Below, piece after piece: positions 4,821-22,461 of a stretch of DNA of 64,000 nt; the stretch's first letter is position 1, and the number at the start of each line of letters is the position of its first letter. The DNA is from Opitutaceae bacterium. GTDB lineage: Bacteria; Verrucomicrobiota; Verrucomicrobiia; Opitutales; Opitutaceae. The position numbers were made by a program, and so were the translations under genes. Under the pieces are notes generated by a model. The model was not told the origin of the DNA. It searched no databases and saw only the letters and a list, made by a program, of their open reading frames with translations. Location of the stretch: assembly GCA_019634615.1 (NCBI GenBank), contig JAHCAZ010000016.1, forward strand, positions 10,020-74,019, in the 5' to 3' direction.

Positions 4821-4865
4821 TCGCCCGCGAAGTTAACCGTAAAGAACGCGCGACCCAAACCTATA

Positions 4866-4951
4866 CACCACTCATGCACACTCATGAGCCCGAAATTCCG
4901 GGAATCCGGCATTCCGAAAATTTCCGTGAGCATTAGTGTGTATTAGTGGTT
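4866..4951. repeat. long imperfect low-GC hairpin, copy H2
   Basis: The arms are caccactcatgcacactcatgagc (4866-4889) and gtgagcattagtgtgtattagtggtt (4926-4951), roughly three quarters complementary. It lies downstream of the stop at 4985 and upstream of the dinB start. Confidence 0.7.
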
Positions 4952-4984
4952 ATTCGGATTAGGTTCTGCACGCATCTCTCATGG

Positions 4985-5593: not shown

Positions 5594-5612
5594 CCGGTGC
5601 GCCCGAGGTGGG

Positions 5613-6266: not shown

Positions 6267-9122
6267 TTACCCGGACCGCTGCCGCCACCTGGCCAGCGCT
6301 TGGCCGGTCAGCGAGCGCGGCTCGGCCTCGATACCGGGACGCGGCCCGGCATAGACGAGGTCGCCGCCGTCGCGGCCGCCGCCGGGGCCGAGGTCGATGA
6401 GCCAGTCGGCGAGGTTGATCACGTCGAGGTTGTGCTCGATGACGATCACGGTGTTGCCGGCGTCGCGCAGCTTGAAGAGCAGGTCCATGAGGCGCTGGAT
6501 GTCGGTCCAGTGAAGTCCCGTGGTCGGCTCGTCGAGGATGTAGAGCGTCTGGCCCTGCTGGCGCTTGCTGAGCTCGAGCGAGAGCTTGAGGCGTTGCGCC
6601 TCGCCGCCTGACAGCGTGGTGGCGGCCTGGCCGAGCTGGAGGTAGCCGAGGCCGACGGCCTCGAGGGTCGCAAGCCGGTCGAGGATGCGCGGGATATTGC
6701 GAAAAAGGGTGATGGCCTCGCGCACCGTCAGGTCGAGCACGTCGGCGATGGAGCGGCCATGGAACAGCACCTCGAGCGTCTCGCGGTTGAAGCGCCGCCC
6801 GCCGCAGCTCGGGCACGGGGCGTAGGCGTCGGCCATGAATTGCATGTCGAGCTTGATCACGCCGTCGCCCTGGCAGCGCTCGCAGCGGCCGCCGCGGACG
6901 TTGAAGGAGAACCGGCTCGCCTTGTAGCCGCGGATCCGCGCCAGCGGCACCTGGGCGAAGAGGTCGCGCAGGAGGTCGAGGAGGCCGGTGAACGTGGCGG
7001 GGTTCGAGCGCGGGCTGCGGCCGATGGGCTCCTGGTCAACCAGGACCAGCTTCTCGAAGAAATCGAGGTTCTCGATGTGGCGGTGGCGGCCGGGGATGGC
7101 CTTGGCGCCGTTGAGCTTCCGGGCGGCGGCCGCGGCGAGGATGTCGTTGACGAGGGTGCTCTTGCCCGAGCCTGAGACCCCGGTGACGCAGGTGAGCAGG
7201 CCGACCGGGAACCGGGCGTCGATGCCGCGCAGGTTGTGCTCGCGCGCCTCGCGGACGGTGAGCCAGGCGCCGTCGGGTTCGCGCGGCTCGGCCTCGCGGG
7301 TGACGCGCTGGCGGCCGGCCAGGTAGGGGCCCGTGCGGGACTCGCGGGGCGAGAGCCGGGCGCAGGCCGCGGGCGTGCCTTGAAACAGCAACTCGCCGCC
7401 CTCGGTGCCGGCCCCGGGGCCGAGTTCGATGACCTCGTCGGCCATGCGGATCGTCTCCTCGTCATGCTCGACGACGAGCACCGTGTTGCCGCGGTCGCGC
7501 AGTTCCCGCAGTTGGGCGAGCAGGCGCTCGTTGTCGGCCGGGTGCAGGCCGATGCTGGGCTCGTCGAGGACGTAGATGACGCCCATCAGGCCCATGCCGA
7601 GCTGGGTCGCCAGCCGCACGCGCTGGGCCTCGCCGCCGGAAAGGGTGGCGTAATCGCGGTCGAGGGTCAGGTAAGCCAACCCGGTCTGGAGGAGGAAGTG
7701 CAGGCGCTGGACGATGCCGGTGACGACCTCGGACAACGCCGCGCCCGGACCATGCGCGGCGGCGAGCTGCTCGGCGACGGCGTGGGCCGAGGCGACGTCC
7801 AGGGCGAGGAAGTCCGGGTAGGTGCGGCCGAGCACGGTGACGGCACTGCTGCGGGCGTTGAGGCGCCCGCCGCGGCATTCGGTGCAGGTGCCGCTGACCA
7901 TGAACGTGGTGAGCCGGGCGCGGAAGCCCTCGCTGTCGGTGTGCCGGAAGCTCTCCTCGAGATCCGCGATCACGCCGGCGAAGGGCATCGTCTTGGCCTC
8001 GCGCATGCGGCGCAGCTTGAAGGCGAACTGGCGCTCCCCCGCCCCGTGCAAAATGGCGTGGCGCGTCGCGTCGGGCAGATCCTGCCAGGGCGTGTCCGGG
8101 TCGAAGGGCAGCTGCTCGGCCAGCTGCTTCAGGAGCGCGTTGTGCTTAATGATGAGATTCTTCCCGCCGATGCGCCACGGCTTGAGCGCGCCGCCGCGCA
8201 CGCTCTTCGCCGGATCGGGCACGAGGAGCTCGGGGACGAACCGCATCTGCCGGCCGAGACCGCCGCAGGTGGTGCAGGCGCCCTCGCTGTGGTTGAACGA
8301 GAAATGCCGGGGCGTGAGTTTCTCGAAGACGTCGCCGCAGGTCTCGCAGGCGAGGTGCTGGCTGAGGGTCAGCTCCGTCCACGGCTGGTCGGCGGCGGCC
8401 TGCGCCAGCACGAGGGCGCGGTCCTTGCCCTCGCGGAAGGCGAGCTCGAGCGAGTCGGCGAGGCGGGCGCGCTGGTCGGCGGTCGCGACCAGGCGGTCGA
8501 CGACCAGGTCGACGGCGATCTCCTTGGCGCCGGTCGGCACGATGTTGGGCTCGTCGAGGCTGCGGATCTCGCCGTTCAGGCGCACGCGCTGAAAGCCCCG
8601 CTGGCGCAGGCGCGGCAACTCGTCGCGCAGGACGCTGGGCTTGGCCCGCAGCAGCGGGGCGAGCAGCATGAGCCGCTGGCCCGCGCAGGCGGTCAGAAGG
8701 CGCTGGACATTGTCGTCCAGCGAACGGCGGATGACGCGGCCGCCATCCTTGGGGCAGCGCTGCTCGCCGGCCAGCGCCCACAGCAGCCGCGCGTAGTCGG
8801 CGATCTCCGTCGCGGTGGCGATCGTGCTGCGCGGCCCGCCGGCGCCCACGCGCTGCTCGATGGCGAGCACGGGGGAAAGCCCGTGGATGAAGTCCACCTC
8901 GGGGCGCTTCAACTGGTCGAGCACCGCCCGCGCCTGCGTGGAGAGCGACTCCATGTACTTGCGGTAGCCCTCGGCGTAGATCGTGTCGAAGGCCAGCGAC
9001 GACTTGCCGGACCCGCTCGGGCCGGTGATCACGGTGAGTTTTCCGCGGGCGAGACGCAGCTCCAGGTCCTTCAGGTTGTGTTCCCGGGCCCCTTTGACGT
9101 GGATGTGCGTGGCAGCCTGCAT
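6267..9122 (-). CDS. uvrA: excinuclease ABC subunit A
   Basis: [47 protein letters not shown] is present, together with two ABC ATPase modules and zinc-finger Cys clusters. I set the start at ATG 9122. Confidence 0.95.
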
Positions 9123-9334
9123 ACGGCCAGCGCACAAATTAACCCGTGCACCGCAAGGTCAAAGCCGAGCGCGAGATTCGCAAGATATGCGCAGGCCGTA
9201 TGACACTTTCATCCTTGAACGCCTTCTCCCAAATGCGTTTCGTGGCGCCCAGCAAACCCATCGTGTCGGTAAGAACCCCAAAACCTTGGCAGCGGGCTCC
9301 CGGCGGAGCTCGTGCTCCCCAAAAACCCTCATCC

Positions 9335-11314
9335 ATGAAAGCCCCCCTGCTTGCTTGCTCCCGCAAACCGCGCCTGCCCCTGTTCGCCGCCGCCCTGCTG
9401 GCCGGCCTGGCCTCCCCCTTGGCCGCCTTCCAGTTCGGCAGCGGTGACATCACCGGCACGTTCGACTCCACGTTCTCGGCCGGTCTCCTCTACCGGGTGA
9501 GCCCGCCCGCCCGCGGCCTTTACGGCACCGCCAACGGCGGCCTGCAGAACTCGGTCAATTCCGACGACGGCAACCTCAACTTCGATTCCGGCGTGGTCTC
9601 GAGCCTCTTCAAGGGCTCCCACGACCTGCAGCTCAAGTGGAACGATGTCAGCGTCTTCGCCCGCGGCTATTACTTCTGGGACGCCAAGGCGGACGACACC
9701 CAGCGCACGGTCCTGAGCGACCAGGCGGAAAAGCGCACCGTGCAGGGCGCGGAGCTGCTCGACCTCTACGTCGCCACGGGGATCGACGCGGGCGGCATCC
9801 CGATCGACCTGCGTTTCGGCCGCCAGGTGCTCAGCCTCGGTGAAAGCACCTTCATCCCCAACGGCATCAACGTCGTGAACCCCGTGGACCTCTCGAAGCT
9901 GCGCGTCCCCGGCGCCGAGCTGAAGGAGGCCTTCCTGCCGGTCAACATGCTCAAGGCCTCCATCGGCCTGACCGAGAACCTGACGATCGAGCCGTTCTGG
10001 CTCCTCGAGTTCCGCCGCAACGAGCTCGAGCCCGCCGGCTCCTACTTTTCGACCAACGACTTCGCCAGCCGCGGTGGCAGCACCCTCTGGCTGGGCTTCG
10101 GCGGCATCTCCGACCGCACCGGCGCCAGCGGCACCGGCCTCGGCGGCATCCAGCGCGACCTCGACCGCGAGGGCGGCAACTACAACCAGTACGGCATCGC
10201 CGCCCGCTACCTCACGCCGTCGGGCGCCGAGGTCGGCCTCTACTACGCCAATTACCACAGCCGCTCGCCGGTCATCAGCGCGCGCACGCCGACCGGGCCG
10301 ATCAGCTCGGTCTACGTGCAGACGGTCGCCGGCAACCTCGCCAACGCCCAGCTCGCGCCGGCGATGATCGGCGCGGGCATCCCGGCCGCCACCGTCGCCG
10401 CCGTCCTGCCCAACCTGGTCGGCGCGGCGCTCCTCGGCGTCCCGGCGGCGGGCCTGCCGCCGACGCTCGCGCCCTACGTCGCGTTCTACGATGGCGCCAC
10501 CAAGATCGCCGCCAGCGCCCGGACCCTCGGCTTCCTGAGCGCCGCCCAGACCGGGCGGTATTTCACCGAGTATCCCACCGACATCCAGATGGTCGGCGCG
10601 AGCTTCAACGCGGATCTCGGCTCCACGGGCATCTCGTGGCAGGGCGAGGTCTCGCTCAAGCAGGACGTGCCGCTGCAGGTGGACGACGTCGAGCTCCTCT
10701 TCGCCGCCCTCTCCTCCCTCAACCCCGCGTACGGCGCCAGCAACCAGATCGGCAACTACCTCGGCCAATACGGCAAGGAGGTCTCGGGCTACCGCCGGCA
10801 CGACGTCTGGACCGCGCAGACCACGCTGACCAAGGTCTTCGGCCCGCAGCTCGGCGCCAGCCAGCTCACGGTGGTCGGCGAGGTCGGCGGCGTCTGGGCC
10901 GATCTCCCGGACAAGAGCGTCCTCCGCTACGACGGCCCCGGCAGCTTCACCAGCGGCAGCGCCGCGTACATGCTGAGCAGCGGCAACGGCACGCTGCCGG
11001 CCACGCCGGAGGATGCGTTCGCCGACAGCGCCTCGTACGGTTACCAGATCCTGGCGCGCCTTGACTACAACAACGCCTTCGCCGGCATCAACGTCTCGCC
11101 CAGCATCGCCTTCGTCCACGACTTCAGCGGCACCACGCCGCTCCCGCTGGGCAACTTCATCGAGGGCCGCAAGAGCATCACGATCGGCGCGGAGTTCACC
11201 TTCCAGAACAGCTGGGTGTTCGAGCTGCGCTACGTGGATTTCACCGGCGCCGGCGCCTACAACCTCCTGAGCGACCGCGACTACGTCGCCACGACCCTGA
11301 AATACTCGTTCTGA
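9335..11314 (+). CDS. DUF1302 family outer-membrane beta-barrel-like protein
   Basis: It has a signal peptide MKAPLLACSRKPRLPLFAAALLAGLASPLAA, followed by FQFGSGDITGTFDSTFSAGLLYRV, which is typical of DUF1302. It ends in ..LKYSF, a terminal aromatic as in OMP beta-signals. I trimmed it from ORF 9146. Confidence 0.8.
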   Translation: MKAPLLACSRKPRLPLFAAALLAGLASPLAAFQFGSGDITGTFDSTFSAGLLYRVSPPARGLYGTANGGLQNSVNSDDGNLNFDSGVVSSLFKGSHDLQLKWNDVSVFARGYYFWDAKADDTQRTVLSDQAEKRTVQGAELLDLYVATGIDAGGIPIDLRFGRQVLSLGESTFIPNGINVVNPVDLSKLRVPGAELKEAFLPVNMLKASIGLTENLTIEPFWLLEFRRNELEPAGSYFSTNDFASRGGSTLWLGFGGISDRTGASGTGLGGIQRDLDREGGNYNQYGIAARYLTPSGAEVGLYYANYHSRSPVISARTPTGPISSVYVQTVAGNLANAQLAPAMIGAGIPAATVAAVLPNLVGAALLGVPAAGLPPTLAPYVAFYDGATKIAASARTLGFLSAAQTGRYFTEYPTDIQMVGASFNADLGSTGISWQGEVSLKQDVPLQVDDVELLFAALSSLNPAYGASNQIGNYLGQYGKEVSGYRRHDVWTAQTTLTKVFGPQLGASQLTVVGEVGGVWADLPDKSVLRYDGPGSFTSGSAAYMLSSGNGTLPATPEDAFADSASYGYQILARLDYNNAFAGINVSPSIAFVHDFSGTTPLPLGNFIEGRKSITIGAEFTFQNSWVFELRYVDFTGAGAYNLLSDRDYVATTLKYSF

Positions 11315-11334
11315 ACCCCCGCCCCTTACCCGCC

Positions 11335-12687
11335 ATGAAAAAGCTTACCCTCATCCCCCTCCTCCTGGCCGCCCTGCTCCCGGCCACGCTCGCCGCGGCC
11401 GTCAGCGAAACCGACGCGGCCCGCCTCGGCCAGGACCTCACGCCGCTCGGTGCCGAGATGGGCGCCAATGCCGACGGTTCCATCCCGGCCTGGACGGGCG
11501 GCATCACCACCCCGCCCGCCGGCTACACGGTCGGCGATCACCACCCGGATCCCTTCGCCGGCGACCATGCCCTCTACACCGTCACGGCGGACAACGCCGC
11601 GCAGCACGAGGCCAGGCTCACCGCAGGCCACCTCGCGATGCTCAAGGCCTACCCGGACTACAAGCTCAACGTCTACCCGACCCGCCGCAGCGCCTCCTAC
11701 CCGGAGCGCATCTACGCCGCGACGCGGCAGAACGCCGTCACCGCGAAGCTGGTGAACGACGGCGCCGGTTTCGCCGACGCGATCCACGGCATCCCGTTCC
11801 CGATCCCGCAGAACGGCCTCGAGGTTATCTGGAACCACCTCGCCCGCTACCGCGGCGTCGCCGCGGCCCGCTACATCGGGCAGGCCGCCCCGACGCGCGG
11901 CGGCAGCTACACGCTCGTCGAGTTCGAGGACGATTTCCTCTTCAACTACGCCCGCGAGGACATGACCTACGCCCAGCTCGACAACGTGCTGGTGTACTTC
12001 AAACAGTCCGTCGTCGGCCCGGCCCGCCTCGCCGGCACGATCCTCCTGGCCCACGAGACGATGGACCAGGTCAAGGAGCCCCGCCGCGCCTGGGTCTACA
12101 ACGCCGGCCAGCGCCGCGTCCGCCGCGCGCCGAACGTCGCCTACGACAACCCTGGCACCGCCGCCGACGGCATGCGCACCAGCGACCAGTTCGACATGTA
12201 TAATGGCGCGCCCGACCGCTACGACTGGCAGCTCGTCGGCAAGAAGGAGCTCATCGTCCCGTACAACTCCTACAAGCTGCACGCGAAGGACGTGAAGTAC
12301 GCCGAGATCCTCAAGCCGCTCCACATCAACCAGGACCTCGCCCGCTACGAGTTGCACCGCGTCTGGGTCGTCGAGGCCACCCTCAAGGCCGGCACCAAGC
12401 ACGTTTACCCGCGCCGCACGTTTTACGTCGACGAGGACAGCTGGCAGATCCTGGCGGTCGACCAGTACGACACGCGCGGCCAGCTCTGGCGCGTCTCGGA
12501 GGCGCATTGCATCAATTACTACGATGCCCGGCTCTTCTGGAGCACGCTCGAGGTGCACACCGACCTTCAGGCCGGCCGCTACCTCGCCATCGGCCTTGAT
12601 AACGAGGGCCGGATGTACGACTTCAACATCAAGCGGACGTCCGCCGACTACAGTCCCGACGCCCTGCGTCGTGAAGGCGTGCGCTGA
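11335..12687 (+). CDS. DUF1329 domain-containing periplasmic protein
   Basis: It has a signal peptide MKKLTLIPLLLAALLPATLAAA, followed by LGQDLTPLGAEMGANADGSIPAWTGG, the characteristic DUF1329 N-terminus. It starts 20 nt after the DUF1302 gene. Confidence 0.8.
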   Translation: MKKLTLIPLLLAALLPATLAAAVSETDAARLGQDLTPLGAEMGANADGSIPAWTGGITTPPAGYTVGDHHPDPFAGDHALYTVTADNAAQHEARLTAGHLAMLKAYPDYKLNVYPTRRSASYPERIYAATRQNAVTAKLVNDGAGFADAIHGIPFPIPQNGLEVIWNHLARYRGVAAARYIGQAAPTRGGSYTLVEFEDDFLFNYAREDMTYAQLDNVLVYFKQSVVGPARLAGTILLAHETMDQVKEPRRAWVYNAGQRRVRRAPNVAYDNPGTAADGMRTSDQFDMYNGAPDRYDWQLVGKKELIVPYNSYKLHAKDVKYAEILKPLHINQDLARYELHRVWVVEATLKAGTKHVYPRRTFYVDEDSWQILAVDQYDTRGQLWRVSEAHCINYYDARLFWSTLEVHTDLQAGRYLAIGLDNEGRMYDFNIKRTSADYSPDALRREGVR

Positions 12688-12719
12688 TCCTGCGCGCACC
12701 GCCTTCCCCGCCTGACCAC

Positions 12720-13652
12720 ATGGCCACCATCCGGAGCCGCCGGCTGCTGATCGCAGGCGGCTTCGCCCTTTTCTGGCCCCTGCTCGCCGCCACGCCGGTG
12801 GCGCCGAACATGCTGCTGCTGGACGGCGTGGCCGTGGGGGCCGAGATCCTCGCCGTCGGGGAGCGCGGCACCATCATCGGCTCGGCCGACCAAGGCCGCA
12901 CCTGGGAGGCGCGTCCCTCCCCGGCCACGGCCACCCTGACCGGCCTCAGCTTCGCCCCCGATGGCCGCCGCGGCTGGGCCGTCGGGCATGACGCCCTGAT
13001 CCTGGCCACCGACGACGGCGGCCGGTCGTGGCGCCGGCAATGGCAGGGCGCCAACCTCACCGACTCCTTCCTCGACGTCCTGGCCCTCGACGAGCGGCAC
13101 GTGATCGCCGTCGGCGCCTTCGGCTTGTGCGTCGAGACGACCGACGGCGGCGCCACCTGGACCACCCGGCGCCTGCTCGACGACGACTACCACCTCAACC
13201 GCCTCACCCGCGGGCCGACCGGCACGCTCTACCTGGCGGGCGAGCACGGCACGCTCCTCCGCTCCCGCGATCGCGGCGCCACCTGGGACGGCATCCATTC
13301 ACCCTACGACGGCTCGTTCTACGGCATCCTGCCCCTGGGCGAGACGCGCGTGCTCGCCTACGGGCTGCGCGGCCGCCTCTACCTGTCCGAGGATGACGGC
13401 GACACCTGGGAACCGGTGGAGAACGAGCGCCGCAACCTCATGCTGACCGCCGTCGCCGTCGCGCCGGGGCGCGTAATCGTGGCCGGCCAGGCCCGCGCCT
13501 TCGTGGCCCTCGACCTCGCGCAGCGCACGCTGCAGTCCACTCATCCTGCGATGCAGACCGCCGTGGCGGAACTGCTGCTCCTGCCCGACGGGGCGCTGCT
13601 CTGCCTCGGCGAGGCCGGTGTCACCGTCCTGCCCGCGGCCCCTCAGCCATGA
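12720..13652 (+). CDS. BNR/Asp-box repeat beta-propeller protein (Ycf48-like)
   Basis: It has five Asp-box-like motifs: SADQGRTWE, TDDGGRSWR, TTDGGATWT, SRDRGATWD and SEDDGDTWE. It also has an N-terminal signal-like segment. Confidence 0.75.
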   Translation: MATIRSRRLLIAGGFALFWPLLAATPVAPNMLLLDGVAVGAEILAVGERGTIIGSADQGRTWEARPSPATATLTGLSFAPDGRRGWAVGHDALILATDDGGRSWRRQWQGANLTDSFLDVLALDERHVIAVGAFGLCVETTDGGATWTTRRLLDDDYHLNRLTRGPTGTLYLAGEHGTLLRSRDRGATWDGIHSPYDGSFYGILPLGETRVLAYGLRGRLYLSEDDGDTWEPVENERRNLMLTAVAVAPGRVIVAGQARAFVALDLAQRTLQSTHPAMQTAVAELLLLPDGALLCLGEAGVTVLPAAPQP

Positions 13653-15994
13653 TTGCCAAGTTCTCCGACTGGGTCTTCCGCAACCGGCTTCTCCTGGTCC
13701 TGGTCTTCGCGGCCTTCACGGCGGTCATGGCCTGGCAGGCCTCCAAACTGAAGGTCGACGCCAGCTTCAACAAGGGTCTCCCGAGCGACCATCCCTACAT
13801 CCAGACCTTCACCCGGTACCAGAGCGAGTTCGGCGGCGCCAACCGCGTCCTCATCGCCCTGATGGCCAAGGAGGGCGACATCTTCACGCCCGAGTTCTTC
13901 GGGCAGCTGCGCGCGACGACCGACGAGGCGACCTTCCTCACCGGCGTCGACCGGGCCCAGGTCCAGTCGCTCTTCACGCCCAACGTCCGCTACATCGAGG
14001 TCGTCGAGGACGGCTTCTCCGGCGGCGACGTGATCCCGGCGGATTTCCAGCCCGGCCCGGCCAGCTTCGCCCGCGTCCGCGAGAACATCATCAAGTCCGG
14101 CAAGCTCGGCCAACTCGTCGCCAACGACTTCAGCGGCGCCATGGTCAGCGCCCAGCTGCACGAGGTCGATCCCCAGACCGGCGCGAAGCTCGACTACATC
14201 CGGATCGCCGGCGAGCTCGAGGCGATCCGCGAGCGCGTCGAGCGCGAGTCGGAGGGCCGCATCAGCGTCCACATCATCGGCTTCGCCAAGGTCATCGGCG
14301 ACGTCAGCGACGGCGCCCGCAACGTGCTCGGGCTCTTCGCCATCTCGATCTTCGTCACGACGCTCCTCGTCTGGAATTACGCCGGCCGCTGGAAACTCGC
14401 GTTCGCGCCCGTCCTCTGCTCGCTCGTCGCCGTCGTCTGGCAGCTTGGCTCCGTGGCCGCGCTCGGGTACGGCATCGACCCGTTCTCCATCCTCGTCCCC
14501 TTCCTCGTGTTCGCCATCGGTGTCAGCCACGGCGTGCAGCAGATCAACCGCTTCCGCAACGAGGTCTTCGACGGCCGGGACGGCTTCACCGCCTCGAAGC
14601 GCGCCTTCGCCACGCTGCTCATCCCGGGCTCCGTCGCGCTGGCCACCGACACGATCGGGTTCCTGACGATGCTGGTGATCAAGATCCCGTCGATCCACCA
14701 GCTCGCCATCACGGCCAGCCTCGGCGTCGGCGTGATCATCATCACCAACTTCTTCCTGCTGCCCATCATCCTCTCCTACCTGCGCCTCCCGCTCAACTAC
14801 CGCGACTGGGTCGTCCAGCGCCGGGCGATGGGCAACGCCATTTGGGAGCGCCTCGCGCACGAGATGAAGCCCAAGCCGTCGCAGCTCATCATCGCCCTCG
14901 CCCTGATCGTCGGCGCCTGGGCGTTCTGGATCGCCGGGCGCGTGCACATCGGCGACACCGACGCCGGCGTGCCGGAGCTGCGGGCCGATTCCCGCTACAA
15001 CCGCGACACGCGGCTCATCACCAGCGAGTTCAGCATCGGCGTGGACATCCTCTCGGTCATCGTCGAGACCGTGCCGAACGGCTGCGTCGACCATGACGTC
15101 GTCAGCCTCATGGACCAGTTCGAGGGCCACATCCGCCGCGTGCCCGGCGTCCAGTCCGTCATCTCGCTCCCGGCCGTCGCCAAGATCGTCAACGCCGGCT
15201 GGAACGAGGGCTCGCTCAAGTGGCGCATCCTGCCGCGCGACCAGCAGGCGCTGGCGCAGACGGTCTCACCGATCGAGACGGCCACCGGGCTCCTCAACGC
15301 CGACGCGAGCGTGATGCCGATCCTGATTTTCCTCACCGACCACAAGGCCGAGACCCTGAACGCCGTGACCGCCGCCGTGAAGGAGTTCTCCGCCCGGCAC
15401 CCGTCGGACAAGGCCAGGTTCCTCCTCGCCAGCGGCAACGCCGGCGTCATGGCCGCGACCAACGAGGTCGTGAAGGCGACCCAGATGCCGATCGTGCTGT
15501 GGGTCTTCGGCGCGGTGATCGGGCTGTGTTGGATCACCTTCCGCTCCTTCCGCGCCGTGCTCTGCATCGTCCTGCCGCTCGCGATCGTGAGCTACCTCGC
15601 CTACGCGCTCATGGTCTTCACCAACATCGGCCTCAAGACCTCGACCCTGCCGGTCGTCGCGCTCGGCGTCGGCATCGGCGTGGACTACGGCATCTACCTG
15701 TTCGCCCGGCTGCAGTCGGCGCTCGAGGCCGGGGAGTATTTCGAGGACGCGATGTTCCTCGCCTTCAAGGACACCGGGGCTGCGATCGTGTTCACCGGCC
15801 TGACGTTGGCCATCGGCGTCAGCACGTGGCTGTTCTCGGCGCTGAAGTTCCAGGCTGACATGGGCCTGCTGCTCGCCTTCATGTTCCTCGTGAACATGCT
15901 CGGCGCGATCATCCTCCTCCCGGCCATCGCCCGCTGGCTCTGGCGGCACCACACCGGCCGGACGCAGGTCCCCTTCCCGCTGGCGAAGCCATAG
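13649..15994 (+). CDS. RND superfamily exporter, MMPL/HpnN-like
   Basis: At 781 aa it has two repeated halves, each with a large loop followed by a cluster of TM helices, in the MMPL-type arrangement. Its start overlaps the upstream stop (ATGA). Confidence 0.85.
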   Translation: MIAKFSDWVFRNRLLLVLVFAAFTAVMAWQASKLKVDASFNKGLPSDHPYIQTFTRYQSEFGGANRVLIALMAKEGDIFTPEFFGQLRATTDEATFLTGVDRAQVQSLFTPNVRYIEVVEDGFSGGDVIPADFQPGPASFARVRENIIKSGKLGQLVANDFSGAMVSAQLHEVDPQTGAKLDYIRIAGELEAIRERVERESEGRISVHIIGFAKVIGDVSDGARNVLGLFAISIFVTTLLVWNYAGRWKLAFAPVLCSLVAVVWQLGSVAALGYGIDPFSILVPFLVFAIGVSHGVQQINRFRNEVFDGRDGFTASKRAFATLLIPGSVALATDTIGFLTMLVIKIPSIHQLAITASLGVGVIIITNFFLLPIILSYLRLPLNYRDWVVQRRAMGNAIWERLAHEMKPKPSQLIIALALIVGAWAFWIAGRVHIGDTDAGVPELRADSRYNRDTRLITSEFSIGVDILSVIVETVPNGCVDHDVVSLMDQFEGHIRRVPGVQSVISLPAVAKIVNAGWNEGSLKWRILPRDQQALAQTVSPIETATGLLNADASVMPILIFLTDHKAETLNAVTAAVKEFSARHPSDKARFLLASGNAGVMAATNEVVKATQMPIVLWVFGAVIGLCWITFRSFRAVLCIVLPLAIVSYLAYALMVFTNIGLKTSTLPVVALGVGIGVDYGIYLFARLQSALEAGEYFEDAMFLAFKDTGAAIVFTGLTLAIGVSTWLFSALKFQADMGLLLAFMFLVNMLGAIILLPAIARWLWRHHTGRTQVPFPLAKP

Positions 15995-15997
15995 GCC

Positions 15998-17890
15998 ATG
16001 GCGGACCGGCGGCAGCGCGACGGGATCCTTCTTGCGGTCGGCCTCGGGATCGCGCTGCTCGTCGCCTACTGGCCGGCCCTCCACGGCGGCATGCTGTGGG
16101 ACGACGATGCGCACGTCACCAGGCCCGAGCTGCGTTCAGCGGAGGGACTGATCCGCATCTGGACCGAGCCCGGGGCCACGCAGCAGTTCTATCCGCTGCT
16201 CCACAGCGTGTTCTGGCTCGAGCACCGGCTCTGGGGTGACGCCGTCCTCGGCTACCACCTGGCCAACCTGCTCCAGCATGGCCTGGCGGCATGCCTCGTG
16301 TTTCTGCTCGTGCGCCGGCTCGAGCTGCCGGGCGCCGCGCTGGCCGCCGGCGTCTGGGCCCTGCATCCGGTGTCGGTCGAGTCGGTCGCCTGGATCAGTG
16401 AGCAGAAGAACACGCTCTCCGCCGTCCTCTACCTCGGCGCGGCGCTGTGCTACCTCAAGTTCGACGCGACGCGGGGGCGCGGGCCCTACCTGGCGGCCTT
16501 CGGGCTCTTCGGCCTCGCCCTGCTCACCAAGACCGTGACCGCCACGCTCCCGGCCGCGCTGCTCGTCATCTTCTGGTGGCGCCGCGGCCGGCTCGGGTTT
16601 CGTCGCGACGTGGCGCCGCTGCTGCCGTGGTTCGCCCTCGGGATCGCATCCGGGCTGTTCACCGCCTGGATGGAGCGGAGCTTCATCGGGGCGCAGGGGA
16701 CGGATTTCGCGCTCGGCCCGGTGGAGCGCGTGCTCCTCGCGGGCCGCGCCGTCTGCTTTTATTTCGGCAAGCTCGTCTGGCCGGTCGACCTTGTGTTCAT
16801 CTATCCGCGATGGACGATCGATGCGGCCGTCACCTGGCAATATGTCTTCCCGCTCGCGGTCGCGGTCGTCGGCGGCGGATTCATCTGGCTGGCGCGCCGC
16901 CGCCGGGGCCCGCTGGCGGCGCTGCTGCTCTACGGCGGCACGCTTTTCCCGGCCCTCGGGTTCCTGAATGTTTACCCGTTCCTGTTCTCCTTCGTCGCCG
17001 ATCACTTCCAGTACCTCGCGAGCCTCGCCGTCATCGTGCCGGTGGCCGGGCTCGCGACCCGGCTGGCCGCGCCGCTCCCGGTCGCCGGCCGCGGCGCCCT
17101 GGCCGCCGCATTGTTGTTGGGCCTCACCCTGCTCTCGCGCTCGCAGGCGCGGCCCTACGCCGACGCCGAGACCCTTTACCGCACGATCCTGCGCGCCAAT
17201 CCCGACTGCTGGCTCGCCGCCAACAATCTCGGCAACCTGGCCAGCCGGAGCCCCGACCGGGCGGCGGAGGCGGCCGCGTTGTACGCCGAGGTCGTGCGGC
17301 TGCGGCCGGGTATGGCCGATGCGCACTACAACCTGGCCAACGCGCTCGCCCGCCTGCCGGGCCGCGCGGGCGAGGCCGAGGCGCACTACCGGAACGCCCT
17401 GCGCCTGCAGCCCGACCTCGTCGAGGCCCGCAATCACTACGGCAACCTGCTCGCCCGCGAGCCCGCGCGCACCCCCGAGGCCATCGCGCAGTTCCAGGCG
17501 GCGTTGCGGCTCGAGCCCGGCTTCGCCGAGGTGCACAACAATCTCGGCAACCTGCTGGTTCGCCTGCCCGGGCGGCGCGCCGAGGCCATCACCCACTACG
17601 AGACCGCCGTGCGGCTGCAGCCCGACTTCGCCGACGCGCATTACAACCTCGCCGTGGCCGCCGCCCGCGAGCCTGGCGGGCGCGACCGGGCGCTGGCGGC
17701 CTTCGCCGCGGCGCTGCGCCTGCGGCCCGATTTCGCCGAGGCGCACTTCGGCTGCGGCGTGCTGCTCCACGAGGACCCGGCCCGGCGCGCCGAGGCCGAC
17801 GAGCATTTTGCCGCGACCCTCCGGCTGCGCCCGGATTGGGTCGCCGCCCGGCGACACATCGAGCTGTTGAAGCGCAGGGCAGGTCCCTGA
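15998..17890 (+). CDS. GT-C-like (PMT/TMTC-type) membrane protein fused to TPR repeats
   Basis: The N-terminal half is polytopic, with LWDDDAHV in the first loop and LHPVSVESVAWISEQKN. The C-terminal half has about 7 TPR units (AHYNLANALARLPGR.., HNNLGNLLVRLPGR.. and others). It starts 3 nt after the RND gene. Confidence 0.75.
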   Translation: MADRRQRDGILLAVGLGIALLVAYWPALHGGMLWDDDAHVTRPELRSAEGLIRIWTEPGATQQFYPLLHSVFWLEHRLWGDAVLGYHLANLLQHGLAACLVFLLVRRLELPGAALAAGVWALHPVSVESVAWISEQKNTLSAVLYLGAALCYLKFDATRGRGPYLAAFGLFGLALLTKTVTATLPAALLVIFWWRRGRLGFRRDVAPLLPWFALGIASGLFTAWMERSFIGAQGTDFALGPVERVLLAGRAVCFYFGKLVWPVDLVFIYPRWTIDAAVTWQYVFPLAVAVVGGGFIWLARRRRGPLAALLLYGGTLFPALGFLNVYPFLFSFVADHFQYLASLAVIVPVAGLATRLAAPLPVAGRGALAAALLLGLTLLSRSQARPYADAETLYRTILRANPDCWLAANNLGNLASRSPDRAAEAAALYAEVVRLRPGMADAHYNLANALARLPGRAGEAEAHYRNALRLQPDLVEARNHYGNLLAREPARTPEAIAQFQAALRLEPGFAEVHNNLGNLLVRLPGRRAEAITHYETAVRLQPDFADAHYNLAVAAAREPGGRDRALAAFAAALRLRPDFAEAHFGCGVLLHEDPARRAEADEHFAATLRLRPDWVAARRHIELLKRRAGP

Positions 17891-17956
17891 CCAGCCCTGC
17901 TGACCTCCCGCGCTTTAGGCTGGCAACACCCCGGAACCCGGGTCTTTTTCTCCCGC

Positions 17957-19108
17957 ATGGCCGAGCCCACGGTCCCCAGCTTCCTGACTTCCGGCCAGCG
18001 CCGCGTCATCGGCTTCGCGCTCACGCTCCTGGCGCTGCTGGCCACCGCCGCGTTCTTCGTCGGCGGCATCATCGCGCTCGGGCGCCTCGCCGGGTACTTC
18101 TCCGGCGTGCTCTGGCCGCTGGCGTGCGCCGGCGTCATCGCGCTCATCCTGCGGCCGGTCGTCGAGATCCTGGAGCGGCGCCTCCGTATCCGGCGGCTCG
18201 TGGCGGTGATTCTCCTCTTCGGGGTGTTCGGCCTCGCGCTCACGGGCGCGCTGGTCCTCATCCTGCCTCCGGTCATCGACCAGGCGATCGCGTTCATCGC
18301 CTACCTGCCGACGCTCTGGCAGAGCGCCAGCGGCTACGTCGAGCGCAACTACCCGGAGTGGATCGCGCTGGTGCAGCGGCAGATGGAGAACCCGGCGGTC
18401 CGCCAGCTGGTCGAGAACCTCAGCGGTGAGTTCAAGACCCTCCTCTCCTCGGCCCTCCCGTCGCTGCGCGCGGCCGGGGTCGGCGTGCTGGGCGTCTTCG
18501 CCTTCGCCGCCCATGTCGCGATCATCCCGATCTACCTGTTCTTCTTCCTGCTCTCGCAGGGCAACACCGGCTGGCGGCTCGACCGCCACCTGCCGTTCCT
18601 CAGCCCCGGGGCGCGCGACGACGTCGTGTTTCTGGTCCGCGAGTTCGTCGGCATCGTCGTGTCCTTCTTCCGCGGCCAGCTCCTCATCGGCCTCCTCATG
18701 GGCATGCTCCTCGCCGTCGGCTTTTCGGTCGTCGGCCTGAAATTCGGCCTCGTGATCGGGCTCGCGCTCGGCGTGCTGAACATCGTGCCCTACCTCGGCA
18801 CCATCATCGGCCTGGTCATCACGCTCCCGCTCGCCTTCTTCCAGCCCGACGGCGGCTGGCACCTCATCGGCCTGGTGCTGCTCGTCTACATCATCGTGCA
18901 GAACATCGAGGGCTGGTTCCTCACCCCCAAGATCATGGGCGACCGCACCGGCCTGCACCCGGTCACGATCATCGTCGCCATCTTTTTCTGGGGCACCGCG
19001 TTCGACGGCATCCTCGGCATGCTGTTCGCGATCCCGCTCACCGCGTTCTTCGTCACCGCCTGGCGGTTGGTCCGGCACAAGTACCTCGAGGACACCCCGG
19101 CCGCCTGA
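17957..19108 (+). CDS. AI-2E family transporter (PerM/UPF0118)
   Basis: It is polytopic and contains VLNIVPYLGTIIG..FLTPKIMGDRTGLHPVTIIVAIFFWG..GMLFAIPLTA, which is characteristic of the family. Confidence 0.85.
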   Translation: MAEPTVPSFLTSGQRRVIGFALTLLALLATAAFFVGGIIALGRLAGYFSGVLWPLACAGVIALILRPVVEILERRLRIRRLVAVILLFGVFGLALTGALVLILPPVIDQAIAFIAYLPTLWQSASGYVERNYPEWIALVQRQMENPAVRQLVENLSGEFKTLLSSALPSLRAAGVGVLGVFAFAAHVAIIPIYLFFFLLSQGNTGWRLDRHLPFLSPGARDDVVFLVREFVGIVVSFFRGQLLIGLLMGMLLAVGFSVVGLKFGLVIGLALGVLNIVPYLGTIIGLVITLPLAFFQPDGGWHLIGLVLLVYIIVQNIEGWFLTPKIMGDRTGLHPVTIIVAIFFWGTAFDGILGMLFAIPLTAFFVTAWRLVRHKYLEDTPAA

Positions 19109-19115
19109 GCCCGCC

Positions 19116-20126
19116 ATGTCCTGGGACGTCCGCGCCTCCAACGGCATCTGGCTGCCGCAGCTCGGCTGGCGCCTCGACGCCGCCAAGTCCGTCGATCGCG
19201 CGGTCATTTCGCACGCCCATTCCGACCATATTGCGCGCCATCGCGAGATCGTCTGCTCCCCGCCCACGGCGCGGCTCCTGCGCGCGCGGATGCCCGGCCG
19301 GCGCGTCGAACACGTCCTGCCTTTCGGCCACACCGAGGCCCTCACGACCGACACCGCGGTGACCCTGCACCCCGCGGGCCATATCCTCGGGTCGAGCCTC
19401 GTGCACCTCCAAGGTCCGCCCGGCACGCTCCTCTACACGGGCGATTTCAAGCTTCGACCCGGCTACGCCGCCGAGCCATGCCAGCCGCCGCGCGCCGACG
19501 TGCTGGTCATGGAGACGACTTTCGGCCTGCCGCGTTATGCCTTTCCCCCGCAGGAGGAGGTGGTCGCCGCGCTGATCGCGTTCTGCCGGCAAGCCCTCGC
19601 TGACGGGGCCGTGCCCGTGCTTTACTGCTACAGCCTCGGCAAGAGCCAGGAAGTCCTCCGCGCGCTCGCGCCGGCCGGGATCCCGGTGATGCTGCATGCC
19701 GCCGCGGCGCAACTCACGCGCATCTACGAGCAGCTGGGCTGGACCTTTCCGGCCTACCGCGATTTCGACGCCCGCGAGGCCAATGGCCACATCGTGATTT
19801 GCCCGCCCGCGCACCAGGGCACCGGGTTCCTGCGCCACCTGCCGGCCCGGCGCACCGCCGTCGTCACCGGCTGGGCCCTCGATGCCGGCGCGATCTACCG
19901 CAATCGTTGCGATGCGGCGTTTGCCTTGTCCGACCACGCGGACTACGCGGATCTCCTCCGGTTGGTCGACCTCGTGCAGCCGCGCCGCGTCTACACCGTC
20001 CATGGCTTTGCGCGTGAATTTGCCTCCGACCTCCGGGCGCGCGGTGTCGAGGCGTGGGCCCTGGGGCGGTCCAATCAGCTTGAGTTGCCGCTGGGAACCG
20101 CCACACATACGCCCGGTCCGTCGTAG
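19116..20126 (+). CDS. short MBL-fold/beta-CASP exonuclease, resembling ligase-associated DNA damage response exonuclease
   Basis: The motifs ISHAHSDHI, HPAGHILGSS, YTGDFK, METTFGLPRYAFP and LSDHADYADLL..VYTVHG are present. At 336 aa it is too short for RNase J/CPSF types. Confidence 0.65.
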   Translation: MSWDVRASNGIWLPQLGWRLDAAKSVDRAVISHAHSDHIARHREIVCSPPTARLLRARMPGRRVEHVLPFGHTEALTTDTAVTLHPAGHILGSSLVHLQGPPGTLLYTGDFKLRPGYAAEPCQPPRADVLVMETTFGLPRYAFPPQEEVVAALIAFCRQALADGAVPVLYCYSLGKSQEVLRALAPAGIPVMLHAAAAQLTRIYEQLGWTFPAYRDFDAREANGHIVICPPAHQGTGFLRHLPARRTAVVTGWALDAGAIYRNRCDAAFALSDHADYADLLRLVDLVQPRRVYTVHGFAREFASDLRARGVEAWALGRSNQLELPLGTATHTPGPS

Positions 20127-20142
20127 CCACGTCTCCCCTTCC

Positions 20143-20976
20143 ATGCTTTTCCGCGCCGCCGCCGTCCTGCTCCTCTCCGCCTCGCTGCTCGAGGCCACAC
20201 CGCTGGCCCTGAGCCACGGTGAGGTCCTGACCTACCGGGTCGGCTGGGGCCTGTTCATCAACGCCGGCGAGATCACGATCGCCGCGCGCCAGGACGACGC
20301 GCCGCCGACGCCGCAGCTGCGTGTCACCACGACGACCGCCACCCGGGGCTTCCTGCGGGGTTTCTTCCCGTTCGACGCCACCGGCGAGTCCTGGTTTCGC
20401 CTGAGCGACGGCCGGATCCTCGGCTCAAGCGAGCAAAGCCTGTCGAAGAAAAAGCAGACCCGGCAGTCCCTGGCCTTCGACTACGTCCGCGGCAAGGCGA
20501 CGTACGTCAACGCCGTCCGCCCGGAAAAGAACGCCGAGCTCGATTTGCCGGCCGGCGACCCGATGGACCTCATCACGAGCCTCGTGCAGACGCGCACGTG
20601 GGATCTCAAGCCCGGCGAGAAACAGGATGCCCTGGTGGTCTTCGACGACGATTTTTACGAGCTGACGATCTACGCGGACGGTTATGAGGAGGTCCGCACG
20701 CCGCTGGGCAAGTTCCGCGCCCTGCGCCTGACGCCGCGCATGGAAAAGACGGAACCGAAAGGCATGTTCAAGCGCGGCTCGGAGGTGCACGTCTGGATCT
20801 CGCAGGATGGCCGGCGTCTGCCCGTCAAGTTCCAGGTCGACTTCAAGTTCGGCGCGGGCGTCGCGACGCTCGTCGATCACCAGATCATTCCCGCAATCGA
20901 GTCCACCGCGCCGGCCGCCCCGGCAGTCTCGGCCACGAGCACGGCGGGCGCGACGGCGACCGAACCTCGCAGCTGA
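20143..20976 (+). CDS. DUF3108 domain-containing protein
   Basis: It has a signal peptide MLFRAAAVLLLSASLLEA. It also has LTYRVGWGLFINAGEITI.. and ..GSEVHVWISQDGRRLPVKFQVDFKFGAGVATLV, a pattern typical of DUF3108. I trimmed it from ORF 19882. Confidence 0.65.
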   Translation: MLFRAAAVLLLSASLLEATPLALSHGEVLTYRVGWGLFINAGEITIAARQDDAPPTPQLRVTTTTATRGFLRGFFPFDATGESWFRLSDGRILGSSEQSLSKKKQTRQSLAFDYVRGKATYVNAVRPEKNAELDLPAGDPMDLITSLVQTRTWDLKPGEKQDALVVFDDDFYELTIYADGYEEVRTPLGKFRALRLTPRMEKTEPKGMFKRGSEVHVWISQDGRRLPVKFQVDFKFGAGVATLVDHQIIPAIESTAPAAPAVSATSTAGATATEPRS

Positions 20977-21006
20977 GCGCCGCACCTGGGCGAGGGAATT
21001 TCAGGC

Positions 21007-22461
21007 ATGACTTCCGACAGTCGCGCTGATTTACGCTCACCAGCTGTGGACGCATCTTCCGCCCATCACGGACCCGGGCCTTCCTTACGACGCAACCTGA
21101 GGCTGTGCACTTTGGACGGGATCAACGCGGTGCCGCTGACCATCCTCAGTTCGCCCGGCAACGCCGTGATCGCGGCGCTCCTGACCGGCACCTTTGCCCT
21201 TTCGACGCGGACCTATGGCGTGATCACGTCGCTGCCCTTCTGGTTCAACTTCCTGCAGGTCGTGCTGACGCCACTCTTCGCGCAGCGGCTGTCCGCCCGG
21301 GCCCTGTGCATCGCCAGCGCCTGGATGCATGTCGCGGGCTGGCTGACCTTCGTGGCGGTGCTGCCCTTCGTGCCGATGGGCGACGATCCGGTGACGCGGC
21401 TGACCTTCATCGCGATCTTCTCGTTCATTGCGCTCTCGACGGCCATCAACGGCGTCGCGTGGAACACGTGGATGCAGGGTGCCGTGCCGCTCCGGGTGCG
21501 GGGCAAGTTCTTCGGCCGGCGCAACCGTCTCCTCTACATCTCGCTGCTGGCGTTCCTGTTCGCGGCCTCCGGCGTCCTCGCGTGGTTCGAGGGCTCGCTG
21601 CTCGCGTTCCACATGCTCCTTTCGGTCGCCATCATCATGCGCACGATCTCCGTGCTGTCACAGCACCGGATGCACCTGACCTCGAGCAGCAAGCCGGCGC
21701 ACGCCGAGACGCCGTGGCCGGAGCAGGTTCGCCGGGTCTGGCAGGACAAGACCTACATGCGCTTCATCGCCTTCGCGGCGCTGATGGGCTTCGGCGTGAA
21801 CCTGTTCGCGCCTTTCTACCCGGTGTTCATGTACGAGCAGCTCCACCTGAGCGCGGCGCAGACCAACTTCATGCTCCTTACCGGCATCGTCGGTGCCGCC
21901 GTCGCCTTCCCGGCCTGGGGTCACATGATCGATCGCTACGGCAACATCCCGGTGATGATCGTCGCCCTGTTCCTCTGGCAGATCTTCAACTTCCTCTGGT
22001 GCTTTGTCACCCCCGACAACATCTGGCTTCTCTACATCCCGCTCACCACCGGCGGCATCTTTTCGGCCGGTTACGGCGTCGGCGTCTTCGGGCTCCTGCT
22101 CAAGATCACGCCGCCGGAGGCCCGCACGATGGGCATGGCGCTCTTCGTCTCACTGTCCTCGCTCGCGGCGGCGCTGGGCCCGATCACCGGCAGTAATCTC
22201 ATCAGCTGGGCCATCGGCCAGGGCTGGCCGGGACTCACCGTCTATCACCTCGCCTTCATCGTGATGCCCGTCTTCACGATGCTCAATTGCATCCTCCTGA
22301 AGAAAGTCGCGGAGGCGCGTTCGGCGCGGGTCACGGAGGTGGTCGGGGCGATGCGCAACGTCCGCACGCTGGCTTCGATCTTCGGCCTCTCGTTCCTCGT
22401 CAACCAGGTCTTCTACCGCACGTCGGGCACGGGCACCGGGATTCGGACGGGCCGCAATTAA
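21007..22461 (+). CDS. MFS transporter (paralog 1)
   Basis: It is a polytopic ~12-TM protein. WNTWMQGAVPLRVRGKFFGRRNRL lies between the halves. It is clearly paralogous to the next gene. Confidence 0.75.
   Translation: MTSDSRADLRSPAVDASSAHHGPGPSLRRNLRLCTLDGINAVPLTILSSPGNAVIAALLTGTFALSTRTYGVITSLPFWFNFLQVVLTPLFAQRLSARALCIASAWMHVAGWLTFVAVLPFVPMGDDPVTRLTFIAIFSFIALSTAINGVAWNTWMQGAVPLRVRGKFFGRRNRLLYISLLAFLFAASGVLAWFEGSLLAFHMLLSVAIIMRTISVLSQHRMHLTSSSKPAHAETPWPEQVRRVWQDKTYMRFIAFAALMGFGVNLFAPFYPVFMYEQLHLSAAQTNFMLLTGIVGAAVAFPAWGHMIDRYGNIPVMIVALFLWQIFNFLWCFVTPDNIWLLYIPLTTGGIFSAGYGVGVFGLLLKITPPEARTMGMALFVSLSSLAAALGPITGSNLISWAIGQGWPGLTVYHLAFIVMPVFTMLNCILLKKVAEARSARVTEVVGAMRNVRTLASIFGLSFLVNQVFYRTSGTGTGIRTGRN

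Follow-up and report, generated by a model that had tools for sequence, protein, structure and literature searches.

Described relatives of the locus

A tetrapartite resistance-nodulation-division (RND) system of the HAE3 type was named AmeABCD in Castellaniella defragrans 65Phen by Puentes-Cala and Harder in 2018, and its lineage was described as a conserved four-gene cassette; without the system (ΔameABCD), the bacterium grew less well on monoterpene hydrocarbons, tolerated them less and accumulated more Nile Red (PMC6394551). Here we analysed a locus of five genes (genes 1–5), all on the plus strand at positions 9335–17890 of a 64,000-nt stretch of DNA from an Opitutaceae bacterium (hereafter the window, to whose positions all coordinates refer). 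The first four of them very probably encode a four-part shuttle of the AmeABCD type that moves a hydrophobic molecule across the envelope, because their domain identities, composition and order match those of the AmeABCD cassette and of Sama_1588–1591 in Shewanella amazonensis. By published description, AmeABCD comprises the same four kinds of protein in the same order as genes 1–4, i.e. a DUF1302 protein, a LolA-like DUF1329 protein, a COG4447/Ycf48-like BNR protein and an RND protein. AmeD resembles the product of gene 4 in its length (approximately 780 residues) and has 12 transmembrane (TM) segments and two periplasmic loops, a layout that the hydropathy of gene 4 would fit, and AmeABCD contains no classical membrane fusion protein (MFP) or TolC. 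On the other hand, the host of AmeABCD is a betaproteobacterium whereas that of the window module belongs to Verrucomicrobiota; AmeABCD is an inducible system within a catabolic island for monoterpenes, whereas the window module lies beside uvrA in a housekeeping region syntenic across Opitutaceae; and AmeABCD lacks a gene for a GT-C/tetratricopeptide repeat (TPR) protein, which the window module has as gene 5.

The same four genes were reported by Price et al. to be cofit in S. amazonensis, Kangiella, Pseudomonas stutzeri and P. fluorescens, with export of a cell-wall component as the proposed function (10.1101/072470). Sama_1588–1591 agree with genes 1–4 in the four families, in their order and in the trans-envelope model, and two Shewanella loci of our own survey (L071 and L072; compared loci are numbered with the prefix L) have the gene order of the window, with products of genes 2 and 4 that are 56–57% and 49–50% identical to the window proteins, respectively. 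In Pseudomonas the cluster is split, in P. putida into PP_0765/0766 and PP_2018/2019, and accompanied by a LuxR-type regulator, whereas the window module is undivided; both P. putida pairs were found by Thompson et al. to be needed on Tween 20 and butyl stearate (10.1101/2020.07.04.188060). The Shewanella/Pseudomonas cluster thus differs from the window locus in having recorded phenotypes (Tween 20, butyl stearate and pleiotropic ones) and no fifth GT-C gene. Regarding structure, AlphaFold-Multimer predicted a barrel–DUF1329 complex and a DUF1329–BNR–RND heterotrimer in the Foldy paper (PMC10866462), and a paper of 2026 modelled DUF1302 as an 18-stranded barrel without a representative in the PDB, giving an interface score (ipTM) of 0.84 with DUF1329 (PMC13499233).

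A first-pass annotation of this DNA, made from the sequence alone, had held that these four families recur together in Proteobacteria and are still annotated at the DUF level. This premise has to be corrected, as the cassette carries the name AmeABCD and has deletion and transposon phenotypes as well as AlphaFold-Multimer models; the core formed by genes 1–4 is a known, named and partly characterised cassette, found here in Verrucomicrobiota. The trans-envelope apparatus that the annotation pictured, with an inner-membrane pump, a periplasmic carrier and propeller and an outer-membrane barrel, is a model already published for the cassette (PMC6394551; 10.1101/072470; PMC10866462).

More remote systems share single parts. 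HpnN and MmpL3/4/5, which are HAE3/HAE2 exporters of lipids and siderophores, have in common with gene 4 the RND fold, small periplasmic domains and a conserved Asp-Tyr pair in a transmembrane helix of the second half; these pumps work without a dedicated barrel, LolA-like carrier or propeller, whereas gene 4 is encoded beside such a set. Assignment of gene 4 as HpnN or BstA was rejected on NCBIfam scores far under the cut-offs (80 against 752 for TIGR03480, 36 against 1100 for NF052374 and 14 against 1400 for BstA). NPC2–NPC1 and the Lol system (LolCDE–LolA–LolB), in which lipidic cargo travels in the hydrophobic cavity of a soluble carrier, with a membrane transporter at one end of the route and a second membrane at the other, are mechanistic analogues only, their homology to the module being limited to the LolA-like fold (DUF1329) and the RND fold (NPC1), with different energy sources and cargos. 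Tripartite HAE1 pumps (AcrAB-TolC, TtgABC) likewise contain an RND inner-membrane component, and AmeABCD has, like them, been reported for tolerance of hydrophobic compounds. We rejected a tripartite HAE1 efflux pump as a description of the gene 4 locus on three grounds: no HlyD/MFP or OEP/TolC family matched among the neighbouring open reading frames (ORFs) scanned at positions 795–28465, in line with the first-pass remark that no adaptor or TolC-like gene is adjacent; the ACR_tran score was 25.3 against a cut-off of 28; and the periplasmic domains are much smaller.

Domain identities of genes 1–4

The ORF coordinates agree with five co-directional genes separated by 20, 32, −4 and 3 nt, as first annotated. 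Gene 1 (9335–11314, 659 residues), which would encode an AmeA-like outer-membrane beta-barrel, matched DUF1302 (PF06980) with E = 6.2e-150 and 501 bits against a cut-off of 23.2, covering profile positions 5–541 of 541. Its translation has a signal-peptide-like N-terminus from the ATG at 9335, a start that agrees with gene calls of 658–662 residues in two related loci (L002 and L003), and ends in TLKYSF. Gene 2 (11335–12687, 450 residues), the AmeB-like gene for a LolA-like periplasmic protein, matched DUF1329 (PF07044, E = 1.3e-158) and also LolA_like (E = 3.2e-11, 43.6 bits against a cut-off of 30); the product has a signal peptide and no lipobox Cys. Sequence searches with the products of genes 1 and 2 against PDB chains gave no matches.

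Gene 3 (12720–13652, 310 residues) encodes an AmeC-like, Ycf48-like BNR beta-propeller, matching PSII_BNR/Ycf48 in Pfam with E = 1e-20 and 74.6 bits against a cut-off of 27, and containing exactly five Asp boxes of the form [ST]xDxGxxW at residues 55, 97, 140, 182 and 223. Against the NCBIfam Ycf48 model it gave E = 2.3e-20, under the curated cut-off, as expected because the protein is not the photosynthetic orthologue. Gene 4 (13649–15994, 781 residues) encodes an AmeD-like inner-membrane pump of the MMPL/HAE3 type, with the Pfam MMPL family matched in two stretches (E = 8.4e-34, 117 bits against a cut-off of 20.5); the best NCBIfam model, TIGR00921 (HAE3), gave E = 1.1e-51 with 175.8 bits against a curated 351.9. 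Its hydropathy profile shows two hydrophobic halves and, ahead of each, approximately 190 soluble residues, and fits 1+5 / 1+5 helices. S293-H294 in the first half and D679-Y680 in the second half, which occupy the proton-relay positions of RND proteins, are invariant in 35 homologues down to 26% identity, and the solved structures nearest by sequence are MmpL5, MmpL4 and HpnN. With respect to the individual calls of the first-pass annotation, the profile search returned DUF1302, DUF1329, PSII_BNR, MMPL and, for gene 5, TPR together with PMT_2 at threshold level, so that all five domain assignments hold; the signal peptides of genes 1 and 2, the C-terminal LKYSF, the five Asp boxes and the two-halved 781-residue pump are likewise borne out by translation, Pfam, motif count and hydropathy.

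Distribution of the four-gene module

Homologues of the gene 4 protein (26–78% identity) were aligned, the alignment was used to scan species-representative genomes, and the resulting 80 loci were probed by tblastn with all five window proteins. These loci came from other Opitutaceae, Gamma-, Beta- and Alphaproteobacteria, Desulfuromonadales, Acidobacteriota, Planctomycetota, Rhodothermales and Binatia. Genes 1, 2, 3 and 4 followed each other in this order on one strand in 61 of the 62 loci whose upstream sequence was long enough for the comparison, and this recurrence in independent loci places the arrangement far beyond chance. The closest relatives of gene 4 were from Opitutaceae or Opitutus; outside Opitutaceae, the proteins were 52–66% (gene 2) and 46–57% (gene 4) identical to those of the window. 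One pass over species-representative genomes gave at least some 600 matches to the module pattern. The DUF1302/DUF1329/BNR/RND module is accordingly widespread: within Opitutaceae it forms a conserved core locus, and it is present in at least seven phylum-level lineages, with the conserved order spanning Verrucomicrobiota, Pseudomonadota, Desulfobacterota, Acidobacteriota, Planctomycetota, Rhodothermales and Binatia. A scope confined to Proteobacteria, as first stated, was therefore too narrow.

Genes around the module and the class of cargo

In the 80 genome loci, every ORF up to 6 kb from the module was assigned to a cluster, and clusters that recurred were annotated. AMP-binding/FadD-like genes occurred in 8 loci, thiolase in 8, FadB-like 3-hydroxyacyl-CoA dehydrogenase/enoyl-CoA hydratase in 6, Mpo1-like 2-hydroxy-fatty-acid dioxygenase in 6 and PlsB in 4, and in 6 loci a co-directional gene for a lipase with a Lipase_bact_N domain stood approximately 100 nt upstream; in total, 25 of the 80 loci, from several phyla, had at least one acyl-lipid gene within this distance. 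Taken with what P. putida mutants show on Tween 20 and butyl stearate, these neighbours point to a cargo containing a fatty-acyl chain, which on such genomic evidence is the most likely class. The recurrence across lineages narrows the probable cargo accordingly and fits the idea, already voiced in the first-pass annotation, of a lipid or another hydrophobic molecule.

The FadD-like, thiolase and FadB-like flanks belong to Desulfuromonadales, Competibacteraceae, Azonexus, Burkholderiales, Kiloniellaceae and Thermoanaerobaculia (L016–L018, L021, L029, L038, L039, L048, L060, L067, L068 and L081), and PlsB lies directly upstream of the module in Ectothiorhodospiraceae, Steroidobacteraceae and metagenome-assembled genomes (MAGs) of unclassified Gammaproteobacteria (L024, L028, L042 and L059). 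The lipase, of approximately 780 residues, precedes the DUF1302 gene in Xanthomonadaceae/Lysobacteraceae, Wenzhouxiangella, Marinicella, an unclassified Pseudomonadota MAG and a Rhodothermales MAG (L032, L047, L052 at 3290–5632 on the plus strand of that locus, L057, L073 and L076), which suggests a five-gene operon of lipase and module in those lineages. Two candidate partners in Alteromonadales, an NAD-glutamate dehydrogenase gene downstream and PepN upstream, were set aside as they look like plain lineage synteny.

Domain structure of gene 5

Gene 5 (15998–17890) fuses a polytopic GT-C domain to a TPR array. The C-terminal part (17153–17890) consists of approximately 7 TPR units, seen as 14 helices in an AlphaFold2 (AF2) model; it matched Pfam TPR_11 (E = 6.3e-32) and other TPR families, and its Foldseek matches in the PDB were the TPR domain of OGT and consensus TPR proteins. 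In the N-terminal part (residues 1–385, 15998–17152), the PMT_2 family (PF13231) was reached at threshold level, with E = 2.5e-5 and 25.0 bits against a cut-off of 26.1 for the full protein and 26.3 bits for the N-domain alone; 8 of 12 family members match PMT_2, and the other weak matches of gene 5 (PTPS_related, DUF2142 and GtrII) also belong to the GT-C clan. A profile of the N-domain searched against the PDB gave no match even at E ≤ 10. Since Foldseek with the full-length AF2 model, whose mean predicted local distance difference test (pLDDT) was 90.8, returned TPR proteins only, the N-domain was modelled separately (pLDDT 79.7), and 9 of the 10 top PDB matches of this model were GT-C enzymes (ArnT, Pmt4, PglB, AftD and STT3/OST). 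These matches had probabilities of approximately 1.0, TM scores of 0.40–0.54 and marginal E-values (3e-3 and above) with a consistent ranking, the best being ArnT (5f15: E = 3e-3, probability 1.00, TM score 0.45).

The motif LWDDD occupies residues 33–37, in the first loop and directly after the first hydrophobic helix (residues 10–28), so that the first-pass description of this loop motif and of about seven TPR units proved accurate. Among 44 homologues, W34 and D36 never vary and D35 is kept in at least 90%; E135, K137, K178, H336 and many more residues are likewise invariant among them. Because the loop motif and so many other residues are kept, the enzyme, with its acidic loop-1 motif intact, is probably active. 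Counting of AF2 helices and the Arg/Lys-rich loops (positive-inside rule) point to 11 TM helices, a cytoplasmic N-terminus and, most likely, a periplasmic TPR array, the same topology as that deduced for eukaryotic TMTCs (PMC7801869).

TMTC1–4, PMT and ArnT (GT-C_A; PMT_2 clan) share with gene 5 a polytopic N-domain whose first extracytoplasmic loop carries an acidic DD(D) motif, and the TMTCs also share the C-terminal TPR array and, as modelled, the eleven TM helices (PMC7801869). Unlike TMTCs, the gene 5 family is bacterial, scores at the threshold of PMT_2, and has no match to the TMTC-specific DUF1736 (PF08409) at E ≤ 0.1 in gene 5 or 11 relatives. As judged from these models and profiles, the N-domain is a GT-C glycosyltransferase, TMTC-like by architecture and not classed as a TMTC. 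The bacterial family is very large, with at least 7,900 matches at E ≤ 1e-10, and literature searches on it or on its acceptor returned eukaryotic TMTC and PMT papers only. It is rich in Acidobacteriota and Verrucomicrobiota, often with 2–3 tandem paralogues (L006, L129, L135, L140 and L159), and its membrane domain is unusually conserved, at 51–72% identity, across L005, L006 and L087–L166, which appear to come from the same two phyla.

Origin of gene 5 within the locus

The tblastn survey found the GT-C domain of gene 5 in none of the 80 module loci, 69 of which include at least 2 kb downstream of gene 4 (0 of 69). All six loci checked in which the gene 5 product is 64–86% identical to that of the window have the arrangement uvrA, genes 1-2-3-4-5 and then, where the contig reaches, the AI-2E gene, the junctions between genes 4 and 5 being 3, 3, 40, −4, 4 and −4 nt. 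Sister Opitutaceae (L007, L014 and L033) share the synteny of uvrA and module and have the AI-2E gene directly after gene 4. Conversely, module genes were found near none of 80 metagenome loci carrying relatives of the GT-C domain (51–72% identical over the domain; 50 loci with at least 1.5 kb upstream), the nearest of which (L087) is 61% identical to gene 5 over its full length, and homologues of 50–55% full-length identity (L005 and L006) lie in unrelated genomic contexts. In a neighbour-joining tree, the 14 homologues with at least 64% identity to gene 5 formed one clade, and uvrA was 86–97% identical to that of the window in loci bearing gene 5, against 73–81% in Opitutaceae without it.

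These distribution data can all be explained by one event, the insertion of gene 5 after the pump gene and ahead of its former neighbour in the common ancestor of a narrow subclade of Opitutaceae. The insertion was not recent, as the G+C content at third codon positions of gene 5 (0.92) matches that of its neighbours (0.93–0.97 in genes 1–4); recent transfer, which was considered separately, left no signal in this measure. A co-evolution test between Opitutaceae with and without gene 5, a weak test in itself, found as the only insertions or deletions three of 3–4 residues each in gene 1, with 6, 0 and 1 fixed differences in genes 1, 2 and 3, respectively, and no meaningful gain of Ser/Thr.

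These results bear on what the first-pass annotation had implied, a functional unit of five proteins. Its synteny of five genes exists in the closest relatives, and all other relatives have four; in the same way, the GT-C/TPR gene accompanies the module in six linked Opitutaceae loci and in 0 of 69 elsewhere, which upholds its description as an unusual addition and makes gene 5 a lineage-specific insertion from a family of many unrelated contexts in place of a standing member of the unit. We consider it likely, on this comparative evidence, that gene 5 is an accessory and not an integral part of the machine. As gene 5 joined the module once and its family occurs in many different contexts, an add-on with an acceptor of its own is the most likely role.

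Proposed mechanism and its alternatives

The combined explanation that we put forward, tentatively, is an outward shuttle of the AmeABCD type for a hydrophobic molecule with gene 5 as an add-on. In such a scheme the RND protein (gene 4) would sit in the inner membrane and be energised by the proton gradient. Its two small periplasmic domains would not reach the outer membrane alone; the Ycf48-like propeller (gene 3) would dock on the pump, the cargo would be ferried over the periplasm by DUF1329 (gene 2), a soluble and LolA-like protein, and the DUF1302 barrel (gene 1) would be the outer-membrane station. The gene 5 enzyme would be co-expressed with the pump, and possibly translationally coupled to it, and would most likely glycosylate its own periplasmic or envelope acceptor, outside the conserved machine.

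Regarding direction, we lean slightly towards outward transport, on account of the RND precedent, the Nile Red and limonene-tolerance data of ΔameABCD and the housekeeping setting of the window locus. To our knowledge, every characterised bacterial RND pump works outward, and we know of none that imports substrates. In the deletion mutant, Nile Red accumulates to a higher and not a lower level, and limonene is less tolerated, even when acetate supports growth (PMC6394551).

The strongest alternative is an inward shuttle, in which the barrel would admit exogenous hydrophobic nutrients (fatty esters, acyl lipids or terpenes), DUF1329 would ferry them, and the propeller and RND protein would insert them into the inner membrane for activation and beta-oxidation, in an NPC2-to-NPC1-like manner and with gene 5 unrelated; we regard it as possible, though somewhat doubtful. 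It runs against the RND precedent and the mutant data just given, the phenotypes in Shewanella and P. stutzeri are pleiotropic, and the window locus lies amid housekeeping genes with no catabolic genes nearby. What gives it weight is the company of the module elsewhere, i.e. the FadD-like, FadA, FadB-like and Mpo1-like neighbours in several phyla, the secreted-type lipase shortly upstream and the cassettes found in phenanthrene, steroid and p-cresol catabolic islands. PP_0765/0766 and PP_2018/2019 of P. putida, too, are specifically needed on their two substrates and lie near fatty-acid catabolic genes. Furthermore, ameB::Tn5 and ΔameABCD strains grow poorly with monoterpene hydrocarbons as sole carbon source (PMC6394551), and a substrate transport system was proposed by the Foldy authors (PMC10866462).

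Several points weigh against the outward shuttle with an added gene 5. As to its direction, uptake accounts better than export for the Tween 20 phenotype and for the beta-oxidation and lipase genes linked to the module. In the window the neighbours are housekeeping genes (uvrA, AI-2E, MBL and DUF3108; farther away LpxK and topA), none of them an acyl-lipid gene, so that the inference about cargo rests here on homology and is imported from other phyla. Gene 4 and gene 3 both score under the curated cut-offs of the TIGR00921 (HAE3) and Ycf48 models, the likeness of gene 4 to AmeD is one of published description, and the barrel fold of gene 1 is assigned by family. Finally, the junction between genes 4 and 5 stayed tight while gene 5 diverged to 64% identity, which leaves room for a real functional tie.

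This last point leads to a pathway of five proteins, in which gene 5 would use a polyprenyl-phosphate sugar on the lipid cargo (ArnT-like) or on a module component (PMT/TMTC-like) and the machine would export, or depend on, the glycoconjugate. The short junctions in all six loci speak for it; so do the invariant loop-1 motif and many other residues, which imply that gene 5 is under selection, the lipid A-modifying ArnT as top structural match, and a presumably periplasmic TPR domain that could bind a module protein. We nevertheless judge such a pathway unlikely. The association arose once, none of the 69 other module loci (those of sister Opitutaceae among them) shows it, and relatives of gene 5 stand in unrelated contexts (0 of 80 metagenome loci and 0 of 2 looked-up homologues near the module), often as tandem paralogues. 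Genes 1–3 show neither clade-specific insertions nor a notable Ser/Thr gain in the clade bearing gene 5, by what is a weak test, and a polyprenyl-phosphate sugar synthase found no match among the window ORFs scanned. In its narrower form, recruitment of gene 5 as a dedicated fifth subunit in this subclade, glycosylating the moved lipid or the periplasmic or outer-membrane proteins of the machine, would on present sequence data be improbable. Were it true, this would be the first locus where the cargo or an assembly need of the module could be read from a co-encoded enzyme, and would give the very large bacterial GT-C/TPR family its first assigned acceptor.

That the DUF1302/DUF1329 pair would be an outer-membrane esterase, as Thompson et al. 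proposed for the missing step of Tween 20 and butyl stearate hydrolysis (10.1101/2020.07.04.188060), or mainly an adhesin, as might be thought from the laminin binding of P. aeruginosa PA3923 (taken as a DUF1302 member) and the lower biofilm formation of its mutants, and not part of a transport route is very improbable, given that no hydrolase family matched genes 1 and 2 in Pfam, that the same group later read the pair as transport components via structure prediction (PMC10866462), that a separate lipase gene stands beside the module in six loci, and that the order with RND pump and propeller is kept in 61 of 62 loci.

The outward shuttle with its accessory gene 5 does not overturn current views, and its four-gene module will be unsurprising to a specialist. 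What the analysis adds is a corrected premise in place of an uncharacterised and proteobacterial module, a quantified absence of gene 5 elsewhere and a cross-phylum link to acyl lipids, for a module whose effects extend to biofilm formation, tolerance of solvents and growth on hydrophobic substrates. In addition, the clade bearing gene 5 makes it possible to ask genetically, at low cost, whether the module and glycosylation ever interact.

Setting of the locus in the window

The window has a G+C content of approximately 68%. Upstream of gene 1 and divergent from it lies uvrA (6267–9137, minus strand, by Pfam), and the intergenic region between them (9138–9334, delimited by the Pfam call of uvrA and direct reading) is the presumed promoter region of the operon. 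A promoter scan found no consensus of the sigma-70 type upstream of gene 1, where the host may use other promoter types, and an Rfam scan of the whole window at gathering scores found no regulatory RNA family in the gene 1 leader. A purine-rich stretch resembling a Shine-Dalgarno (SD) sequence is absent from the 25 nt before each of the five starts (9310–15997); initiation at genes 1–5 is, on this reading of the sequence, probably independent of a canonical SD sequence, and arguments for translational coupling from the placement of such sequences are weakened.

Downstream of gene 5, a consensus scan and inspection of the sequence showed a terminator-like hairpin on the plus strand (17930–17952), formed by CCCGG-AAC-CCGGG (17930–17942) and followed by TCTTTTTCTC, within the 66-nt gap before the gene for an AI-2E-family transporter (17957–19108). 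It is a possible operon end, a candidate with a 5-bp stem in a region where the number of such sites is near that expected from shuffled sequence. The further downstream neighbours by Pfam are a metallo-beta-lactamase (MBL)-fold hydrolase, a DUF3108 protein and a major facilitator superfamily (MFS) protein, and farther along the window there are ScpB, IlvD, PGI, LpxK, TopA, Kup, MenD and MenF-like genes. No second copies (paralogues) of genes 1–5 were found elsewhere in the window.

The block of uvrA and the divergent DUF1302 module is syntenic across Opitutaceae (6267–22461 in the window; L001–L004, L007–L015, L033, L167 and L168). Those Opitutaceae loci that reach far enough continue from the module to the AI-2E transporter, the MBL hydrolase and DUF3108, some of them with a gene resembling a GT9 heptosyltransferase, and this trio may be another envelope-related unit.

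Three features elsewhere in the window deserve mention. A 406-residue ORF at 27245–28465 (plus strand) has weak matches only, to MreB_Mbl (4.5e-17), Actin and Salactin, and may encode a divergent actin-like protein. At 35878–35969, between a Ppx/GppA gene (34960–35898, plus strand) and an unannotated minus-strand ORF (35963–37810), ARAGORN predicts a 92-nt tRNA-Pro(cgg), whereas the Rfam tRNA model gives no match even at E ≤ 1; models of miRNA-precursor hairpins match on both strands, so the element is probably a long symmetric hairpin and could be a bidirectional terminator instead of a tRNA. Directly 3' of the topoisomerase I gene (43527–46313), two Acido-Lenti-1 RNA motifs of Rfam stand in inverted orientation, at 46378–46422 on the plus strand and 46530–46574 on the minus strand, with 45.5 and 37.4 bits against a gathering score of 37.

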